Source: an uncultured cyanobacterium
GTDB taxonomy: Bacteria > Cyanobacteriota > Cyanobacteriia > Cyanobacteriales > Microcystaceae
Reading direction: 5' to 3'
Assembly (NCBI GenBank): GCA_963807635.1
Contig: CAWEDJ010000082.1
Coordinates: 1-15,099, forward strand
Length of the DNA stretch: 15,099 nucleotides
This document shows, in pieces, positions 1-15,069 of this stretch (positions are counted from its first letter, which is position 1; every line of letters starts with the position of its first letter). The notes below the pieces were generated by a model. That model searched no databases, was not told the DNA's origin, and worked only from the letters and a program-made list of their open reading frames with translations. The position numbers and the translations under genes were made by a program.

Positions 1-1
1 A

Positions 2-2023
2 AGAGTAGTCTTTCGCAATAGATACTAGGAAGTTGTCAAAATCACTATAAGAATCACCAAGAATAGTTCTCAAATCTGATAATTTTTCAATCTGATTTTT
101 CGTCAAAAAACGACTTTCTAAGCTAAAAATTTTGTTTAATTCTTGATAACTCACAAAGTTAGGAGCCGATAAAAATTTTCTCCAAATAATTCTTTTATTG
201 GTAAAAACTAAACCCTCTTTTGCATCATTCCACATACTCGTATCTATCAATCCTAAAATTTTTTCACTAGGGTTAACTGACACCCATGAAGATAGGGCTG
301 TAGATAATCTATCTAAGGGAATAAGAGGCGCACTAAATCCTTCTTTGTCATCATATTGTGTATTTTGAGGAAGATGATCTGCAATAAAACGTGCAAGAGA
401 TTCTGATGATGGAACTTCCGTTAGAGTATAGCTTCGTGCTTCTAATTCTTTTAAAATATTGCCATCTCGTTTTTTATTATTTTTTAAAAATGACCAAATT
501 AAAAATGTAGCACCAGAAGCAATAAAAGCTGCACCACCAGTTAAGACGCTTAAGCCTCCCAATGTCGCTATCATAGTTGAAACGGCCGCCGCTCCTGACA
601 ATGTTTCTGCGACACCTAAAGCACCAGCGATAGTCCATGCCGCAAATACTCCTGCCGCTCCCGTTAATGTTCCACCGCCTACAGCAATCCCTAAATTTTT
701 TAAGTCTTCTGAATCCATTTTAGAAATAAAAATAATGGATAGTAATCCTGCGGCTCCAATTAAAGCAGATCCTCCTGTAATAACTGCCAATCCTCCTAAC
801 ATTCCTAACCCACCTGATGCAACGGAACCACCACCTAAAAAAGCTAACATTGAATTAGTTGCAGCCCCTCCAGCTAAACTAGCAAAACTAACCCCTGTTG
901 CTGTTTCAGTTCCAATTACTGTTAAAGTCGTATTTATAGCTGGGCCAAGTCCCTCTCCTGCTCCTTTTGCATCAAGTATCTTATCAAGAATTACGTTAGG
1001 ATCTAAACCCTGTTGTTGTTGATTTGTACCACTTGCACTTTCATAAATAAATTTAACATTTTCGGCAAGATTGGAACTTTTTATTAGGAAGTTAAGAGAG
1101 TGAAAATCTCTTTGATCATCATCAGAAATTGTTTCTCCAGCCCGAATTTTTTTATAAATTGAGAGATATATTTCTTTTTGACTACTTGTTAAACGGGTAT
1201 TATCAGATAAATAGCTAACAATTATTGCATCAACGGTCAAAGCCCTTGAAGTCGAACTAGCAACAAAATAATAATGTTTAATAGTTGTAGAAAGTGACGA
1301 GCCGCCAATTATAGCATCTAAGTCATATAAGTCTTGAAAATTTGGAATAATTTCCTGAGAACGAACATATTGAAATGTTGCTTTCAACTTTTTTTGTTGA
1401 CCTTCAGAAAGCTGTGATTGTGAAAATGCTTCATCAATAGCTTGTTGAATTTCTAATAACCGAGAATTATTACTTGCTATTTCATAGCGTTGTTTAATAG
1501 AGCTATCAAGCTTAGACGAAAATACAATATAATCAAGCAATTCAAGCGTAGTTAAATCACTGACAGATTCAGCATTCTTGATTTGGCCTAAAATTTTCTT
1601 ACATTGAAGCTGGCTAGACTCTTTTTTAATAAATTTTGTATGATGCTCAATCTCATCATCAATTTTATCGATTAAAGTGGTGTTTTCTGGATCAAATTGA
1701 TCATGTAATGTATGTAAAATTAATATAATATCATTATTATTTTCTCCAACTTTTTTAAGTACTAATTCCTGATTTTCTTTAGCTTCTTTGGGGAAATTTA
1801 CTGATATATCTTTTCCTGAACGTAAGGTTAGTATTTGTTGTCCACCAGTTGTTGCTATATTATAAGGTACGAAAATATGATATTTTTCAGTATAGCTTTT
1901 GTTAGTTTCAGCATTAGCATATCTCGGATGTAGATAATCCACCGCCATTAAGGCTAATCCGCCTAACAGAAAATTACTGCAAAAAGTCCGACGGCTTAAA
2001 TGAGAATTAGTTAATGGAAACAT
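2..2023 (-). CDS. Large multidomain membrane/exported hypothetical protein (at least 674 aa, 3' end beyond window): Tat-like signal, DnaJ-C-like domain, 3 helical repeats, Gly/Ala-rich hydrophobic region, PH-like domain
   Basis: Manual translation of the minus strand from ATG 2023 gives MFPLTNSHLSRRTFCSNFLLGGLALMAVDYLHPRYANAETNK... with no stop down to position 2 (...FLVSIAKDYS). An in-frame TGA lies immediately upstream of the ATG. Absent from the ORF track, presumably because no stop lies inside the window. Domain calls are by eye. Confidence 0.9.
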   Translation of the reverse strand, partial: MFPLTNSHLSRRTFCSNFLLGGLALMAVDYLHPRYANAETNKSYTEKYHIFVPYNIATTGGQQILTLRSGKDISVNFPKEAKENQELVLKKVGENNNDIILILHTLHDQFDPENTTLIDKIDDEIEHHTKFIKKESSQLQCKKILGQIKNAESVSDLTTLELLDYIVFSSKLDSSIKQRYEIASNNSRLLEIQQAIDEAFSQSQLSEGQQKKLKATFQYVRSQEIIPNFQDLYDLDAIIGGSSLSTTIKHYYFVASSTSRALTVDAIIVSYLSDNTRLTSSQKEIYLSIYKKIRAGETISDDDQRDFHSLNFLIKSSNLAENVKFIYESASGTNQQQQGLDPNVILDKILDAKGAGEGLGPAINTTLTVIGTETATGVSFASLAGGAATNSMLAFLGGGSVASGGLGMLGGLAVITGGSALIGAAGLLSIIFISKMDSEDLKNLGIAVGGGTLTGAAGVFAAWTIAGALGVAETLSGAAAVSTMIATLGGLSVLTGGAAFIASGATFLIWSFLKNNKKRDGNILKELEARSYTLTEVPSSESLARFIADHLPQNTQYDDKEGFSAPLIPLDRLSTALSSWVSVNPSEKILGLIDTSMWNDAKEGLVFTNKRIIWRKFLSAPNFVSYQELNKIFSLESRFLTKNQIEKLSDLRTILGDSYSDFDNFLVSIAKDYS

Positions 2024-2088
2024 TCATCGCTCGACTTATTTTTCTGACAAATTAATAGCAATTCAAAAAGTAAATTTTAATAAAATCC

Positions 2089-2424
2089 CTATGTGTTTTT
2101 ACTAGGATTTGGTAAGAATCTCTGTTTGATAAACATAAATATACTGAGAACTAATTTTCCAATTAATTTTAAAAGAAACTGTACAGATTTTGCGGAATAC
2201 AAGAAAATATTATCCCAAAACTTTCGTGACCATTCCACAATAGTTTGAAGTAATCCTGTCACAAGGAAAAGAGTCACTAACACAATAACCAGGGACAATA
2301 TTGGCTGATTAATAACAAAAGCCGCAAGGTTTCCAATAAAATCAAATAATGGTTGCAGGCTCGCAATAGAATCAGTTAACGGTTGTAGTAGATTAAACGA
2401 AGACATGATTATTGAATTTTTCAA
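2089..2424 (-). CDS. Small hypothetical membrane protein (start TTG 2424 or ATG 2406)
   Basis: 111-aa ORF with a strongly hydrophobic segment (PILSLVIVLVTLFLVTGLL) and an amphipathic/hydrophobic C-terminal helix. Co-oriented with, and 65 bp upstream of, the large gene. Confidence 0.65.
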   Translation of the reverse strand: MKNSIIMSSFNLLQPLTDSIASLQPLFDFIGNLAAFVINQPILSLVIVLVTLFLVTGLLQTIVEWSRKFWDNIFLYSAKSVQFLLKLIGKLVLSIFMFIKQRFLPNPSKNT

Positions 2425-2539
2425 GAGCTTATAAATGATCGTCCAAAAGTTACTATAAAAAAAATATGAACTAAATTCAACTAGCCAAGACTAGGAATTA
2501 TGTTAGAATCTCATTAAAAATCTGTACTAAATCAAGATT

Positions 2540-3034
2540 ATGTCACTCAACACCGATCCTTTTTTTCAGGCTGTCAACCATTGGGACGTAGAAACCATCT
2601 ATATTGATCTTGCCTCAGTCAAAGGAAAGCGATTGACTCCAATCGAAAAAAAGCATCTCAGAGGTTTACTTTGTGGTTATAGTCCTACTGAAATTGCTGA
2701 AAAACTCAATAAAAGTCCTAAAGGTGTTGGGGTAGATTTGTGTAATACCTTGTATCAATATGTCAAAGGTTTAGTGGGAAATAGCAACGGGAAAGTCGAA
2801 AATTGGCGAAATATCACAGAATGGTTAGAAGAAGCAGGTTACAAAAATGACGAACCTGTTGAATATGATATTAGTGATGGCGTATCTTTTGATATTGTTG
2901 TAAAAAGAGCTAATATTAAAATCGAAAAAAATCAATTAATGATTGATATTAATATTCGTTTAGCCACACCTATCCCATCAGAAATTAGCAATCTAGATAA
3001 GACTAACTTTCATGATTTTGATCAAAATAACTAG
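2540..3034 (+). CDS. Cyanobacterial helix-turn-helix (LuxR/sigma-region-4-like) domain protein, putative regulator
   Basis: LTPIEKKHLRGLLCGYSPTEIAEKLNKSPKGVGVDLCNTLYQYVK fits the LT.xE...L.G.S..EIA..L HTH pattern, recalled as common in cyanobacterial proteins. Divergent from the two-gene unit. Confidence 0.75.
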   Translation: MSLNTDPFFQAVNHWDVETIYIDLASVKGKRLTPIEKKHLRGLLCGYSPTEIAEKLNKSPKGVGVDLCNTLYQYVKGLVGNSNGKVENWRNITEWLEEAGYKNDEPVEYDISDGVSFDIVVKRANIKIEKNQLMIDINIRLATPIPSEISNLDKTNFHDFDQNN

Positions 3035-3079: not shown

Positions 3080-3276
3080 AAAAAAAACAGTTTTGGCTCT
3101 CAGAGTGAAGACGGTAATGTTTTTGTGTCCAGAATGCTGACGGTTATTACCAGTTTGCGCTCTCAGAATCGCAATGTCCTAGAATTTATGATTGACGCAG
3201 TTAGAGCTAATCGCAAAGGAACCACTCCTCCTTCTTTGTTACCTCAGTAGCTGTTACACTTTCTCTGAACGATTAC
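3080..3276 (+). mobile_element. IS66-family transposase C-terminal remnant with probable right terminal inverted repeat
   Basis: Frame 3080-3250 reads KKNSFGSQSEDGNVFVSRMLTVITSLRSQNRNVLEFMIDAVRANRKGTTPPSLLPQ*, the recognisable IS66 TnpC tail (RK.SFG..S..G...RMLTV..SLR.Q.RNV...PSLLP). CTGAACGATTAC at 3265-3276 (reverse complement GTAATCGTTCAG) fits a GTAA-starting IS66 end. Confidence 0.8.
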
Positions 3277-3334
3277 GATTAATCTAAGTCTTATTCGAGT
3301 TTTCATCCTCAGTTCATCACTTCCTGTTTCCATT

Positions 3335-3529
3335 ATGTCGATTCAATTAACTGTTTCTAGTATTGCCTGTGGTGGTTGTGCCGAAGCTGTCACCAATGCC
3401 ATTAAAAATCAAATTCCTGATGCTCAGGTAACCGTAGATGTACCGACGAAGCTGGTCACCGTTGAGACGATCGCTTCCGAAGCCGAAATTAAAAACGCGA
3501 TCGCCCAGGCGGGTCATGAGGTCGCTTAA
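3335..3529 (+). CDS. copZ: Copper metallochaperone Atx1/CopZ (HMA domain)
   Basis: 64 aa with IACGGC (CxxC) and C-terminal AGHEV containing the His typical of cyanobacterial Atx1. Closely resembles Synechocystis Atx1. Confidence 0.93.
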   Translation: MSIQLTVSSIACGGCAEAVTNAIKNQIPDAQVTVDVPTKLVTVETIASEAEIKNAIAQAGHEVA

Positions 3530-3553
3530 TTATTCGACATCTCCAAAAATTGA

Positions 3554-3581
3554 GTAAGGGCAATTCATGAATTGCCTCTAC
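3554..3581. repeat. REP-like (GTAG-type) palindrome, probably also a bidirectional terminator between convergent genes
   Basis: Perfect 18-bp palindrome GGCAATTCATGAATTGCC at 3559-3576. The minus strand reads GTAGAGGCAATTCATGAATTGCCCTTAC. Confidence 0.75.
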
Positions 3582-3594
3582 CAAAGGTTTCAAT

Positions 3595-4884: not shown

Positions 4885-5966
4885 CTAAGAAGAAGCCATC
4901 ACCGATCGCGGTTTCGCAAAAATCATCCTTCCCGCCGAAGTTTGCAGAGCAGAAGTCACAATTACTCTCACCTCCGACCCCAGAAATTCTCGACCTTCTT
5001 CTACCACCACCATTGTTCCATCATCTAGATAGCCGATGCCCTGGGCGGGTTCCTTGCCTTGCTTGAGAATTTTCAGATCAAGGGGATCGCCTGGCAGATA
5101 AATGGGGCGTAACGCCTGGGCGAGATCATTGACATTAAGAATAATTACCTTTTGCAAATTCGCAACTTTGCTGAGATTGTAATCATTCGTCAGTAACATC
5201 CCATTAATCTCCTGGGAAAGATGAACCAATTTGGCATCTACTGTACTGATATCCTCATAATCCGCCGAATGAATAATGATACGTTCTGGGTAAAGCTCTT
5301 GCATTCGTCCTAAAATATCTAATCCCCGTCTTCCCCGTACTCGTTTTTGATCATTACTGGTATCGGCTAACTGCTGTAATTCCGCCAAAACAAATTGGGG
5401 AATCAAAATTTGTCCTTCGAGAAAACCCGTATCGAGTAATTGCTCAATGCGACCGTCGATTATGCAACTGGTATCGAGGATTTTCGGCGCGACGGGTCGG
5501 AGAGTTCCCTCGGCAACCAACATCGTTTCAATGCTATTGGGGTTAATTAATCTTAAAAAAGTCCGTCCGTGGGTATCTGCTAAACTAATTCCCAAAAAAG
5601 CAGAGGTAACACTGCCAGGATTTGCCATTGTCGGTTTGATAAAGGAAAATTCCCCAGAATCGGCAAGAGGAAAATCGGGGCCAACATCAAATTGGCAATT
5701 AACAATCCAATTACCAGCCCGACAGCGCGGGTCAGAATCGTTTCGATCGCCGTCTGACGAATTTGTGCTTCTAGGCGACGATAGGTAGTTTGAGCGACCA
5801 AACCCAAGGCCAAGCCGATGATAGAGGTAAATCCTGCTGCCAACCAGCGCAATGCCTCTAGATTAGAAACCTGCGCCCTAACTGTATCAGGAAGCAAGTC
5901 CACGCTATCAAAACCGATTCCCGCGATCGCAAGACAGAATAAAAGAATAATGATGGTATCTAGCAT
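4885..5966 (-). CDS. PIN/TRAM-domain membrane protein (YacL family), split by a frameshift near 5630-5660
   Basis: The N-terminal transmembrane part (ORF 5580..5984, ATG 5966) joins the PIN domain (KILDTSCIIDGRI, RGRRGLDIL, VDAKL, LLTNDYNL) and TRAM domain (GKEPAQGIGYLDDGTMVVVE, SALQTSAGRMIFA) of ORF 4885..5628. Confidence 0.9.
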
Positions 5967-6165
5967 ATTGTCTATCCTAATCAATAATCGGGAAAGTCTG
6001 GCTTAAATTTTTGTGATCCTGTCATCGGAAAAGATAAAGTCGGCGATGCGTGTCTTTGGCATTTGAAAGCATTAATCCAACCAATTATATCGGTTAGATA
6101 ACGCCCATTGAATCCCTCTGGATTGAATGAAACTAACTTTCGGACTTGGGTGAACCTTTTTTGAG

Positions 6166-6778
6166 TTAGCGGATTCCTAAAAACTTATGACTTTGCAGGC
6201 TCATTCGCCATTGGGGATGACAGAGAATATAATCAAAAATCAGTTGTTGACTCTCAGGACGGTTCCATTCGGGTTGTAAGTATTTAGGGATATTCGGCGA
6301 TATCTGCCTTGATTGTTCCTCAGCCCAATGAAAGTCTTTCTCTTCACCAATAATAACCTTTAATTCACTGGCTTTCTGGTAAATACTAGGGTGGGGTAAC
6401 TTGTAGGACTTGGGAGAAAAGGTCACCCAGTCAAATTTCCCACTAAAAGGATGCGCTCCCGACGTTTCTTAAATGAACTTTAATGGCTTTCTGCCGTAAT
6501 GCTTCCGTTAAGGGTAACAAATCATACAGTAACGGTTCACCCCCCGTAATAATCGCGATCGCGGATACACTTGCCTGGACTTGTTCTAATAAATATTCAA
6601 TCGATCGCTGGGGATATCGTTTAGCGGTTCCAGGTTCCTTTTGATCACACCAAGGACAATAAACATCACAGCCACCCAGACGAATAAAAAAAGCATTTGT
6701 CCCCGCCCAAGCTCCTTCTCCTTGGATGGAATGAAAAGTTTCGACAATGGGATAGGTCAAGGTTTGTAGAGCAAGCAT
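6166..6778 (-). CDS. queE: 7-carboxy-7-deazaguanine synthase QueE (radical SAM), frameshifted at ~6470
   Basis: Motifs ETFHSIQGEG, FIRLGGCDVYCPWCD (CxxxCxxC) and ITGGEP. Removing one A at ~6470 restores VHLETSGAHPFSGKFDWVTFSPK, continuing to WRMSLQSHKFLGIR*. Confidence 0.92.
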
Positions 6779-6848
6779 TGGAAAAAGCAAATATTTGGGA
6801 GTTTAGCTGAAGTCAGCGCGATATTTTCCATCGTAGAAGATGCGATCG

Positions 6849-7881: not shown

Positions 7882-8967
7882 ATGACAACTACCCTTCAGC
7901 AGCGCGAAAGCGCCTCTACTTGGGAGCAGTTCTGTCAGTGGATCACCAGCACCAACAACCGTATCTATGTCGGTTGGTTCGGTACTCTGATGATCCCTAC
8001 CCTGTTAACTGCCACCACTTGCTTCATCATCGCCTTCATCGCCGCTCCTCCCGTTGACATCGACGGTATCCGTGAGCCTGTGGCAGGTTCCTTACTCTAC
8101 GGAAACAACATCATCTCCGGTGCAGTTGTTCCTAGCTCCAACGCAATCGGTCTTCACTTCTACCCCATCTGGGAAGCAGCTTCCTTAGATGAGTGGCTCT
8201 ACAACGGTGGTCCTTACCAATTGGTTGTTTTCCACTTCCTCATCGGCATCTTCTGCTACATGGGTCGTCAGTGGGAACTTTCCTACCGCTTAGGGATGCG
8301 TCCTTGGATCTGTGTTGCTTACTCGCACCTGTTGTCTGCCGCAACCGCAGTTTTCCTGATCTACCCCATCGGACAAGGTTCCTTCTCTGACGGGATGCCT
8401 TTGGGAATCTCTGGAACCTTCAACTTCATGATCGTGTTCCAAGCTGAGCACAACATCTTGATGCACCCCTTCCACATGTTGGGAGTAGCTGGTGTCTTCG
8501 GTGGTTCTTTGTTCTCCGCTATGCACGGTTCCTTAGTTACCTCCAGCTTGGTTCGTGAAACCACTGAAGTCGAATCTCAAAACTACGGTTACAAGTTCGG
8601 TCAAGAAGAAGAAACCTACAACATCGTTGCAGCTCACGGCTACTTCGGTCGCTTGATCTTCCAATACGCTTCTTTCAACAACAGCCGTTCCTTGCACTTC
8701 TTCTTAGGTGCATGGCCTGTCATCGGTATCTGGTTCACCGCAATGGGTGTAAGCACGATGGCATTCAACTTGAATGGATTCAACTTCAACCAATCCATTC
8801 TTGACTCCCAAGGTCGTGTAATCGGAACACTGGGCTGATGTGCTTGAACCGCGCTAACATCGGTTTTGAAGTGATGCACGAACGTAATGCTCACAACTTC
8901 CCCCTTGATTTGGCATGCTGGCGAACAAGCTCCTGTAGCTTTGACCGCTCCTGCAATTCACGGTTAA
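7882..8967 (+). CDS. psbA: Photosystem II D1 protein, standard Gln130 form, with apparent indels near 8325-8335, ~8828, ~8843 and ~8915
   Basis: [10 protein letters not shown]...; Y161 (LIYPIG), D170 (SFSDGMP), E189/H190 (QAEHN). The C-terminal [16 protein letters not shown]...[15 protein letters not shown] is readable in shifted frames to TAA 8965-8967. The span is 1086 nt against 1083 for a 360-aa D1. Confidence 0.98.
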
Positions 8968-10926: not shown

Positions 10927-13900
10927 GTGGAGCTAAAACTAAGATTAGGGGCAGAAGTGAGCCAGGAAAACGAGTGTAGTATTTTAATTGTTGATGATTC
11001 GGAAAGCGATCGCGCAGTCTATGTTCGCTACCTTCAGGCTGAAAAAAATTTTAATTATCAAATTATAGAAACAGATACTTTAGAGGCCGCCTTAGAAAGT
11101 TGGGAAAGGAACCGTCCCGATTTAGTACTACTCGATATTAATTTGCCCGATGGGAATGGGCTGGAATTTTTGGAAGCGATCGCCCGAAATTGCTCCACGC
11201 CCAAGTTACCTGTCATTGTGATGACGAGCCAAACGGATACACGAATTTTACTCGATGCCATGAAAAAAGGAGCGAGTGACTATTTATTTAAAGAAGAGAG
11301 AAATTCTGATGTTTTTCGTCGTCGTGTTGCCCATCTATTCAATGAATTGGAACTGTCGCAGAGATTAGCACGATTAAAGCAACAGGAAATGCTTAGTGCA
11401 GAGATTGCTCTACGGATTCGGGCATTTTTAAATTTAGAAGATATTTATCAGGCGATTGTCACGGAAATTCGCGCTTTTCTCAACACCGATCGCGTTATTG
11501 TCTATCAGTTTAATCCCGACATGAGCGGTCAAATTGTCGCTGAATCTGTCATTCCTCCCTGGGAGCCGTCTCTCCATGCTCAGGTTATCGATAACTGTCT
11601 TCGGGATAACCAGGGCATTGCCTATCAACAGGGTAAAGTCTTTTCGGTCTCGGATATTTATGACGCGAATTTAACGGATTGCCATGTGGAATTACTGGCG
11701 GACTTTCAGGTGCGGGCAAATTTGGTTGTTCCGATTCTCTTACCCCATACGGTTGCGCCAAACCAATCCCCTTTGGGGGTTACTGATTGCCCATGAATGT
11801 TCTGGGCCACGCCGTTGGAAAACTGATGACATTGAATTCCTCCAGCGTTTATCGGTACAATTGGCGATCGCGCTCCAACAGTCCGTCGCCTATGAACAAC
11901 TGCAAAACGAACTAGCCCAAAGAAAACGAGCTGAATCAACCCTACAAAAACTGATCGCAGGAACGTCCTCTGTGACGGGGAAAGCCTTTTTTCCTGCGTT
12001 TGCTCAGAATGTGGCTGAGGTTTTGGATGTTCGTTATGCCTTAATTACTGAAGTGGATGAGGATTACCTTCGGACTTTGGGATTTTGGGCAATGGAGCCT
12101 TGCAACCGTCTATTTCCTATCATGCTGTCCATACTCCCTGCGAATATTCCCTCAGAGACGGGGAATTTTACTGTGAACAACTGATTCAAAAACTTTTTCC
12201 TCAAGATTTAGATCTGGTGACGATGCAGGCAGAAAGCTATTTGGGAGTGGTCTTGAAGGATCATGAGGGGAATGCGATTGGTAATCTTTGCATTCTCGAC
12301 ACCAAACCTATTGCCAAACATAAACGGGTAGAGGCGATCGCGATTCTCAAAATTTTTGCCGCGAGAGCCAGCGCGGAATTACAACGAAAACAGGCTGATG
12401 AAAAACTTCAACAACTTAATCAATACCTAGAAGTTCAAGTTGAACAGCGTACTGCCGCCCTACAAGAGAGTGAAATCACCAATCGGACGATTTTACAAAC
12501 CATTCCCGATTTATTATTGCGTCTTAGTCGGGATGGAACTTGTTTGGACTACATAGAACCCAGAATTGAGAAGGATAAATTTCTGCCCATTGTTCATCAC
12601 ATTTCCGAAGTTTTACCCCCAGAAATCGTCCAAAATACGTTACAGGTGATAGAGCGGGCGATTGCCACCAAGGAGTTGCAAATCCATGAACATCAAATAA
12701 TCAAACAGGAGCGTCTGACCTATGAAGAAATTAGGGTACTGGCGATCAATGAGCAAGAAGTTTTAGTGATCGTGCGGGATATCAGCGATCGCAAACAAGT
12801 CGAAGAACAGTTGCAAAAAACAACTAATCGCCTTGCTATTGCCCTCAAATCTGGGTCTATCGGTTATTGGGAGTGGGATTTAGCTAATAATATCTGCCTT
12901 TGGGATGAACGAATGTATGAACTGTATGGCGTTGATAAAAAATCTAATTCTCTTGCGGAATGCGAAATTTTAGCAAACGCACTCCATCCCGATGACCGTA
13001 ACTCCGTCGAAACACTACTCCAACAAGCCATCTTAGGAGAGGCAGAATACGATACAGAATTTCGGATCGTTCATTCCGATAGCAGTATCCATTTTATTAA
13101 AGGCCTATGGAGTAGTTTTAAGAGATACTCAGGGCAATCCTCAGAGTATTATTGGGGTTAATTTTGATATTAGCGATCGCAAGCGAGCAGAACAATCTCT
13201 AGAGGAATCGCGACAATTTTTGCAAACTGTCCTAGATACCTTTCCCCTTTCTGTTTTTTGGAAAGACCGTCAATCTGTCTATTTAGGGTGCAATCAAAAT
13301 TTTTGCCCAGGGTGCGAACCTGACTTCTACTAATGAAATAGTAGGGAAAAATGACTACGATTTACCCTGGGGAGCCAAGGAAGCGGCTTTTTATCAAGCG
13401 GATGATCGACAAGTCATCAATCAGGTGTCCCTAAACTCGCGATTGAAGAAACCATTACCTTAGGGACAGGGGAAACTCGATGGATTGAAACCAATAAAAT
13501 TCCCCTACGAGATTTAAACGGTAATGTGATCGGCGTAGTTGGGACTTTTCAGGATATCAGCGATCGCAAACAGGCTGAAGACAATCTCAAAAACGAAAGA
13601 TTACGATTACAATTAGCCCTAGATGCGGCCAAATGGGAGCCTGGAGTCGTAGTTCTGAATCCCATCAACTGATTTGGTCTGATCGGGTTCAGGAAATTTT
13701 TGGGTTTGTGCCAGGGACTTTTTCGGGTGATCCAGAAACCTTTGTGGCGATGATCCATCCCAAAGACCGTGATCGCGTTATGGAAGCCCTCGCCCACACC
13801 TTTGCGACAGGAGAACCCTATCATCTCGACTATCGTATTTTCCGACTAGATGGTGAAATGCGTTGGATAAGCGTTTGGGCGATTCTCACTGAAAGGTTAT

Positions 13901-15069
13901 CCACAGACGAACGACAACTGATCGGCGTGATTGCAGACATCAGCGATCGCAAACAAGCCAAAAAGCCCTACGAAAATCTCAGCAATTTATTCAAACCATC
14001 ATTAACACCGTTCCCCTTCCCCTGTTTTGGAAAGATCGGCAATCTGTCTTTTTAGGATGCAATCAACAACTCGCCCAACTACTAGGTTTAAGCTCAACGA
14101 CTGAAATTGAGGGGAAAACCGACTTTGATTTCTTCTAACCGAAGACCAAGCGATCGCCTATCAGGCAGGAGATCAACGGGTAATCACCTCAGGAGAAGCC
14201 GAACTCGGTAGAGAAGAAACTTATACATTAGAGAATGGAGAACTGAATTGGATTGAAACCCACAAAGCCCCCCTCAGAGATGAAGAGGATAATATTATTG
14301 GCGTGGTGGGAATGTTTCAGAATATCAACGAGCGAAAGCACTACGAACTGGCTTTATATCAAAAGAATACCGAACTCGAAAAATTACTCCAGTTACGGGA
14401 GGAAACCCTAGAATTGCGGGAAGATATGTCTAACATGATTGTCGATGATCTACGCACTCCCTTAACAACGATTACCCTTGCGGCAGGAATGATCAATAAA
14501 TACGGCGATCGCGTAGGACAAAGAGCCTTGATCGTCCGCAAAGCAGGAGAGATCCCAGATTCTGCTAAACAACTGGAAAAAATGATCGACAGTTTGTTGT
14601 TTATGGCGAAACTAGAAGCAGGAAAAATATTATTCAACCTAATTCCAACGGATCTGAACCGTTTAGGGTCTGAGGTAATCGCTGATTTTGAATTGATCGC
14701 TCATGCCCGTGATATTGAGTTACACAGTGAATTACCTAATTTGGGTAAAACGATTCTCGTGGATGCAATGATTTTACGGCGTATCATTGACAATTTGGGA
14801 ATTGAAATTTTCTCCTAGCGGTGGTCAATTCACGAAATGGAATATTTACCTGAAAACCGATTGAAAGTTAAAGTGGAGACACGGGAACGGGAATCAGTGA
14901 AGCGAAAAAAAAAGATTTTTCAAAAATTTGAGATCTTAAGCTTGAAGAGAAATGTTTCTCAGACGGGGTTAGGTCTGGCTGTTTGTTAAACTGCGTCGAA
15001 GCCCAGGGAAGGAACCTTAGCTATTCAGATAATCATCCCCAGGGTGTTATCTTTATCGTAGAAATCTAA
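10927..15069 (+). CDS. Large hybrid sensor histidine kinase: REC - cyanobacteriochrome GAF - GAF - 5 PAS/PAC - HisKA - HATPase, broken by many indels (alternative start GTG 10957)
   Basis: REC ([27 protein letters not shown]). GAF1 ([35 protein letters not shown]). GAF2 (TPCEY...AESYLGV). PAC ends DISDRK at ~12778, 13166, 13553 and 13936, and NINERK at ~14321. H-box [17 protein letters not shown]2 box QTGLGLA near 14960. Ends [13 protein letters not shown] at TAA 15067-15069. ORF-track fragments join across frameshifts at about 11760, 12085, 13105, 13300, 13420, 13632, 13960, 14135 and several after 14790. Confidence 0.88.

Follow-up and report, generated by a model that had tools for sequence, protein, structure and literature searches.

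The window analysed here is a complete cyanobacterial contig of 15,099 bp, which carries psbA at 7882 and, at its left end, a minus-strand gene of 674 codons (2..2023) that is single-copy in the genome. The first-pass annotation had described this frame as uninterrupted and missing from the ORF track: its 674 codons are indeed open up to the contig end, and because it is 3'-open it is absent from ordinary ORF lists, appearing only when open ends are allowed. Its length, previously given as at least 674 residues, is most likely exactly 674, since the first base of the window is T on the minus strand and the end ...IAKDYS is common to it and to six near-identical proteins (P0002, P0003, P0277, P0282, P0283 and P0288), which places the stop codon just past the contig end. 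P0277 is present on six contigs, the longest of 29.7 kb. Contigs from four freshwater sequencing runs span the gene from about base 384 upwards, with none over 1-360, and the sequencing runs listed for the gene include no RNA run. The ORF is real and almost certainly complete at 674 aa. The C-terminal helical tail (residues 631-674; 2..133, minus strand), delimited from the predicted model and homolog comparison, is longer by about 110 aa in homologs of ~795 aa.

The gene shares a low-GC island (1..3034; 33% GC versus 41% for the genome, GC3 0.19) with a truncated ORF and an HTH gene. The island contains zero GCGATCGC sites, which we take to be HIP1, against 3.6 expected (P = 0.028), and is bordered by a multi-copy element. 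By homolog comparison, the truncated ORF (2089..2424, minus strand) is the membrane part of a ~250-aa protein with amphipathic repeats and a transmembrane (TM) segment, full-length relatives of which lie directly 3' of the gene in two Pseudanabaena loci only (L006:10137-10823 and L044:3936-4622; 2 of 80 loci); it is possibly a loose partner of the gene. This upstream ORF, of 111 aa, was also considered as a frameshifted N-terminus of the 674-aa protein and rejected: it matches none of 120 homologs, and the ~795-aa forms extend at the C-terminus. The HTH gene (2540-3034, plus strand) encodes a widespread cyanobacterial protein without a Pfam family and was likewise rejected as a dedicated regulator, its homologs sitting in unrelated contexts, including an 84% identical copy elsewhere in sister genome G401 and, once, a relative divergent from a PDC-M09A-like gene (L106). 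Beyond the island, an element at 3080-3280 is multi-copy in other genomes, and its translation lacks a Pfam match and presumably resembles the C-terminus of an IS66 transposase. It is followed by a small gene for a 64-aa heavy-metal-associated (HMA) protein (3335-3529, plus strand), below the usual ORF length, and by a short repeat (3532-3594) found at many places in the same and related genomes. Several further genes of the window, which we assume to be PIN/TRAM-like, QueE-like and sensor kinase genes, appear split into overlapping ORFs (5580-5984 with 4885-5628, 6166-6790, and 10927-14818), suggesting frameshifts or assembly errors in the contig.

A protein search returned 278 relatives of the 674-aa protein among 8000 scored candidates. 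Among the 120 relatives listed, all organism-bearing entries are cyanobacterial, and identities lie at 41-50% save for three near-identical proteins. Pfam and NCBIfam gave nothing above cut-off for the 674-aa protein, Pfam over 58 family members revealed no full-length family, and PDB sequence searches (queries A1, A5 and A4) gave nothing significant. Matches to DUF5693, Med15_M and VP16-like entries fell below cut-off, and the names "urocanate hydratase", "Ammonia permease" and "monoamine oxidase" that some homologs carry in their source records have no Pfam support. In the Atlas, the whole protein falls in two unnamed cyanobacterial clusters and the Gly/Ala hairpin region has no usable match; a viral fold library returned DnaJ proteins and low-probability tape-measure rows and nothing else, and collections of phages, plasmids and viral contigs yielded zero matches to the family. 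The family is nowhere described in the literature that we searched, mostly outside subscription journals and bioRxiv supplements. The first-pass annotation had recognised five parts by eye and knew of no characterised protein that combined them. All five are confirmed (a twin-arginine signal, half a DnaJ-C, three helical repeats, a Gly/Ala region and a PH-like domain, the PH fold weakly), no characterised full-length family emerged from the Pfam, NCBIfam and PDB sequence searches, and at least 72 of the 80 loci carry the parts in a single ORF rather than as separate genes. Overall, the gene is real and almost certainly complete, and the cyanobacterial family to which it belongs is undescribed and patchy in its distribution.

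The N-terminal 38 residues (1910..2023, minus strand) comprise the SRRTFC motif, an h-region with a mean hydropathy of 1.86 (residues 14-28), and a cleavage site between ANA and E, as had been proposed. R11 and R12 are invariant and A36 and A38 at least 90% conserved among 58 aligned homologs. All 113 homologs whose N-terminus is at least 30 aa long carry the twin arginine (7 of 120 were too short for scoring), compared with 25 of 2094 ORFs of the same genome, and FL follows at +2/+3 in 92 of the scorable homologs. The section on class I Tat substrates of one review gives their consensus as Z-R-R-X-Phi-Phi at the n/h boundary, then an h-region and an AXA cleavage site (PMC13673990, section 6). 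S-R-R-T-F-C conforms to this pattern, as do the h-region and the conserved AXA, and by these sequence criteria the protein fits a predicted Tat (class I) substrate. As to the compartment reached, the available part of a spatial-proteomics paper on cyanobacterial signals reports too few Tat proteins to predict periplasm versus lumen.

The segment that follows (residues 43-108; 1700..1897, minus strand), noted earlier as beta-rich and DnaJ-C-like, corresponds in structure and profile matches to half a DnaJ-C, i.e., one client-binding beta-barrel subdomain of Hsp40. Residues 43-106 align with this subdomain at Z 9.4 and rmsd 1.6 over 63 positions, 13 of the top 14 structure rows are titled DnaJ or Hsp40, and Pfam DnaJ_C appears in 25 of 28 weak profile hits scanned, out of 57. 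The family shares this one subdomain with DnaJ/Hsp40 proteins of the CbpA type and differs from them in having no J domain (no Pfam DnaJ match in 58 family members), no second barrel, and an exported or membrane-bound context. Three four-helix repeats of ~73 aa come next, at residues 114-189 (1457..1684), 190-262 (1238..1456) and 263-337 (1013..1237), all on the minus strand. Their number agrees with the earlier reading by eye, and the repeats match one another at hhalign probabilities of 96.2-98.1%, versus at most 0.22% for four controls. Among 1.84 billion representatives, a barrel-plus-repeat profile found 52 matches at E 1e-10 or better, and because all of these are family members or fragments, the repeats look specific to the family at the level of sequence profiles. 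The AlphaFold model is confident for the barrel, the repeats and the C-terminal domain and not for residues 334-508.

Most of that low-confidence stretch belongs to the Gly/Ala hydrophobic region of some 150 aa ending in KNNKKR that had been flagged by eye, and this description proved accurate: residues 372-515 contain 20% Gly and 49% G+A+S, and KNNKKR (residues 514-519; 467..484, minus strand) adjoins them, followed by a conserved LExRxY helix at which the signal-less short forms end. At 70% identity, this region is the most conserved part of the protein; it is also poorly modelled (pLDDT about 25 in the 674-aa model). It is a tandem duplication of a hairpin motif that occurs once in cyanobacterial proteins of ~320 aa recovered from a phylum search. 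Unit 1 (residues 355-436; 716..961, minus strand) is homologous to the hydrophobic centre of these proteins, and unit 2 (residues 443-513; 485..697, minus strand) is a shortened duplicate that is full-length in L057, where it matches unit 1 at an hhalign probability of 99.3%. Against the hydrophobic centre of the ~320-aa long-helix proteins, the hairpin region scores 98.4%, unit 1 98.8% and unit 2 92.3-98.2%, Gly/Ala-rich matches being boosted by composition. A search for shorter proteins with the hairpin region returned mostly family fragments. Of the 19-mers in the region, three are clearly hydrophobic and one marginally so: on an insertion scale, 415-433, 453-471 and 491-509 score like PsbA helices and 392-410 is marginal, and therefore an odd or an even number of membrane crossings would both fit.

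The ~320-aa proteins match the PADLOC model PDC-M09A nearly end to end in five of five cases tested (E 3e-25 to 8e-32). PDC-M09A is a PADLOC candidate that the main text of its source paper does not name. A local match to it is present in 58 of 58 members of the family studied here, and the 674-aa protein covers just 47-72 of the 282-330 profile positions, i.e., not the full length. Both PDC-M09A with its look-alikes (L104-L111) and our family carry the motif G-x-x-I-S-x-L-S-G-A-A-A-x-N-A-T-L-A-x-L-G-G-G-S-x-A-x-G-G with flanking hydrophobic helices. In PDC-M09A-like proteins, however, it occurs once, between long coiled-coil helices and usually beside a ~135-aa partner gene, whereas the family studied here has it twice, together with DnaJ-C, repeats, PH and Tat signal, and has no partner. 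The model of one ~320-aa relative (pLDDT 58) shows a long bundle of helices in which the motif, at mid-chain, is poorly modelled. Its best whole-length match, the ClyA pore, is non-significant (Foldseek E 0.97, TM 0.37/0.41; Z 6.2 and rmsd 10.5 by VIA), and the matches listed for the model of the 674-aa protein, with its low-confidence hairpin region, do not include ClyA. Because the ClyA match is non-significant, it is from layout, by analogy with ClyA, DinC and JukB, that the ~320-aa proteins may be regarded as putative alpha pore formers. The ~320-aa protein and its helical ~135-aa partner, which has no PADLOC or Pfam match, form a common cyanobacterial two-gene unit (L104-L111, L142), with two copies 11 kb apart in G059. 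By itself, this unit is a candidate for a defence system.

Residues 547-630 (134..385, minus strand) form the PH-like domain. Here, the earlier proposal stood in part: the domain is modelled with a pLDDT of about 90 and matches positions 6-100 of the 544 of BnzA at E 5e-10 (6e-19 for the best family member; local match in 50 of 58 members), yet in structure it matches bacterial PH domains weakly, the Z scores of 4.9 (3hsa), 4.3 (3b77) and 4.2 (6b3y) for the whole model lying below the level that excludes chance, and no PDB sequence match was found for it. Between the 674-aa protein (P0001) and P0277, 24 of 41 residue differences fall inside the 84-residue PH domain of a 674-residue protein (p = 3e-12), i.e., two strongly different PH alleles coexist within this species group. 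Among 23 non-identical groups of close relatives, chosen on other regions of the protein, nine have a PH domain whose divergence is over twice that of the repeats, and two have one whose divergence is less than half. At the depth of the family, it is as conserved as the repeats (44% versus 42% identity). The divergence among close relatives therefore points to exchange or diversifying selection of the PH domain, as far as sequence comparison can tell. No longer fused PH forms were found, in what was a weak test.

We then compared architectures across 80 GTDB loci kept of 105 found. Fifty-five combine Tat signal and PH, five have PH without Tat, 12 have neither, and eight were unscored: five are split or interrupted, one runs off its contig, and two are intact, signal-less and with insertions. 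Intact signal-less loci thus number at least 17, of which at least 12 also lack PH, while PH is present in 55 of 55 intact Tat-bearing loci. The signal-less starts are real, with stops lying upstream of them; in L024 and L060/L070, comparison with closely related Tat-bearing members shows that the RR and h-region were cleanly lost. A quick unrooted tree of 49 rows requires the Tat label to change four times, and its longest branch holds P0188 and P0190, very divergent signal-less members on short contigs. Signal and PH are optional modules, and the intact signal-less forms suggest that the core can work without export. A further clade (clade C; L098-L102, six genomes in the phylum search) has the same barrel and repeats, with amphipathic N-terminal repeats in place of the signal, a degenerate hairpin that has lost its hydrophobicity, no PADLOC match and no PH. 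Its N-terminal repeats are similar to those of the ~250-aa amphipathic-repeat and TM family noted above.

This distribution bears on one of the two functions offered by the first-pass annotation, an integral membrane sensor or receptor in which Tat would export the barrel and repeats, three helices would span the membrane, and a cytoplasmic PH domain would be the output. The three PsbA-like segments, the marginal fourth, the basic KNNKKR after the last helix and the constant presence of PH beside the signal all fit such a topology. What weakens the reading is that no fewer than 17 intact loci are signal-less, at least 12 of them being without PH as well, so that the same core would have to face opposite ways in different members. 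The clean deletions of the signal and the want of a conserved signalling partner in the loci also count against it, as does the statement, in the part of the source consulted, that Tat membrane proteins usually carry a single TM helix at one end (PMC10924467). We consider a receptor unlikely.

The gene behaves as an accessory, foreign-looking and patchy one. It occurs in 22 of 401 genomes of the phylum (17 with the two main architectures, some of them broken, and five with clade C only), was found in none of five sister genomes, one of which is 84% complete, and is split or interrupted in five of 80 loci. Across the 80 loci, conservation of neighbouring genes does not extend past synteny within a genus, and the largest neighbour clusters (16 of 81 loci) represent a Microcoleus site at which the gene is syntenic in about 16 loci. 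Toxin-antitoxin (TA), restriction-modification (RM) or mobile genes make up 32 of 150 immediate neighbours and 21 of 140 genes at least 4 kb away, so that enrichment of defence-island genes is not significant (p = 0.17; 39 loci, 150 of 151 near ORFs, 140 of 177 distal ORFs drawn at random, classes by Pfam reading), the distal control genes lying in the same loci and possibly in the same islands. Single loci are suggestive: in Myxacorys, the gene lies in cargo position, with TnsB/TniB/TniQ-like transposon genes on one side and a type I RM operon on the other (L073:4403-14547), McrBC is found near the gene in L067, and two dynamin-like GTPase genes directly follow a signal-less member in Anabaena azotica (L061:7247-11197). 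In L075, Hsp20 precedes the gene.

The last two loci can also be placed in another reading, that of a membrane-stress or quality-control protein whose barrel would hold unfolded clients while hairpins and PH anchor or bend the bilayer, with no killing involved. The true Hsp40 client-binding fold is in its favour, as are clade C, with amphipathic repeats for a signal and a degenerate hairpin, the dynamin-like pair and Hsp20 beside the gene, and the stable Microcoleus site. Conversely, the protein has no J domain, half a client-binding unit and no conserved chaperone neighbour, the gene is patchy and often broken, and a fast-changing PH domain is unexpected for a housekeeping function. On balance, this role seems improbable, as does, to a greater degree, that of a toxin released against competitors or small grazers and parasites, which would be exported by Tat, shed past the outer membrane and aimed by its PH domain. 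A conserved cleavable signal and a variable PH domain would suit such a toxin, and glycine-zipper toxins are reported in interbacterial killing (PMC5380434, PMC10240207). Against it, no conserved immunity or secretion gene adjoins the gene, signal-less members exist, and a second export step is not evident.

The explanation that we favour, at a little short of an even chance, is a stand-alone, horizontally spread, membrane-inserting one-gene effector of the defence or conflict kind, most plausibly anti-phage. Of the two functions proposed earlier, the pore-forming effector is the better supported, but not as a multi-gene "system", since no conserved partner accompanies it. A hairpin in common with PDC-M09A-like proteins, a PH domain in common with BnzA, a patchy and foreign-looking gene, and the variability of the PH domain argue for the effector. 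On the other side are the lack of significant enrichment in defence genes, the stable Microcoleus site, the non-significant fold link to ClyA, the status of PDC-M09A as a candidate, the low model confidence of the hairpin region, the contribution of composition to Gly/Ala-rich matches, and clade C, which keeps barrel and repeats yet has lost hairpin hydrophobicity and the PADLOC match. Starting from the observed architecture, duplication, optional modules, patchiness, PH variability and local homology to two PADLOC models, we infer the following course for such an effector. The protein would fold in the cytoplasm, where the helical repeats would shield both of its Gly/Ala hairpins; Tat-bearing members would be carried folded across the inner (or thylakoid) membrane, and signal-less members would remain on the cytoplasmic side. 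A trigger would be sensed by the DnaJ-C barrel, as unfolded or foreign peptide, and/or by the variable PH-like domain, as a lipid or protein target. The hairpins would then insert and oligomerise, permeabilising a membrane, and the most plausible purpose would be to stop phage infection. A precedent for a sensing role comes from an abstract reporting that host DnaJ mediates phage sensing by bNACHT25.

Several known systems resemble the putative effector in part. Bunzi, which we take to be a two-gene system, is the closest at the PH domain: the N-terminal ~95 positions of BnzA match the PH-like domain, and both proteins pair it with hydrophobic helices. The match is N-terminal in BnzA, however, whereas the PH domain of the family is C-terminal and optional. 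BnzA also carries a TerB domain, according to the part of Millman et al. consulted, while 58 family members have no Pfam TerB match; no BnzB is conserved in the 80 loci, and the neighbours in the window, which holds one side of the gene, have no Bunzi match. The anti-phage alpha pore formers Dionysus DinC and Juk JukB, and the ClyA family, share with the family the proposed action, i.e., permeabilisation of a membrane by a hydrophobic segment of a helical protein, in the portions of their descriptions available to us, but no sequence or significant fold match to it emerged. Those same portions describe Dionysus and Juk as consisting of several genes and report no Tat signal for them, in contrast to a single gene with a short-helix repeat rather than a long bundle. 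SNIPE, from the accessible part of its preprint, is a defence protein encoded by a single gene and located at the membrane, and its homologs swap targeting modules, PH domains included; unlike the family, which has no enzyme domain and no homology to SNIPE, it is a nuclease. The accessible parts of Millman et al. and of the SNIPE preprint indicate that TM segments plus lipid-binding or PH modules serve membrane-associated defence, and these parallels support, by analogy, a similar way of working and not membership. The family is not a member of the Bunzi, PDC-M09 or DnaJ families, probably does not belong to the ClyA family, and is best placed with membrane-targeting defence or conflict proteins.

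What would be new in its biology depends on where the protein ends up. We give a rather low probability to a statement with two arms: either a one-gene anti-phage pore former is re-addressed between compartments (signal-less forms at the cytoplasmic face, Tat-bearing forms in the periplasm or thylakoid lumen, and specificity set by a PH domain that can be exchanged), or, if PH stays inside, the protein is a Tat substrate whose N-terminus is exported, whose chain forms several TM helices and whose C-terminal domain is folded in the cytoplasm. The latter layout fits none of the five Tat classes distinguished in the consulted part of a 2026 review. Since the available text of PMC10924467 gives one terminal helix as usual for Tat membrane proteins, there would be novelty both in a pore former that Tat exports and in a Tat topology of this unusual kind. 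Export of the whole protein would make it a defence protein of the pore-forming type that reaches its site through Tat, of which we found no described case in the literature searched; if PH stays cytoplasmic, the known classes of Tat substrates would be extended. The family itself supplies natural controls: forms that have or lack the signal, forms that have or lack PH, and two PH alleles in one species group. It occurs in bloom-, mat- and crust-forming genera, namely Planktothrix, Microcoleus and Limnospira, in which resistance to cyanophages is ecologically relevant.
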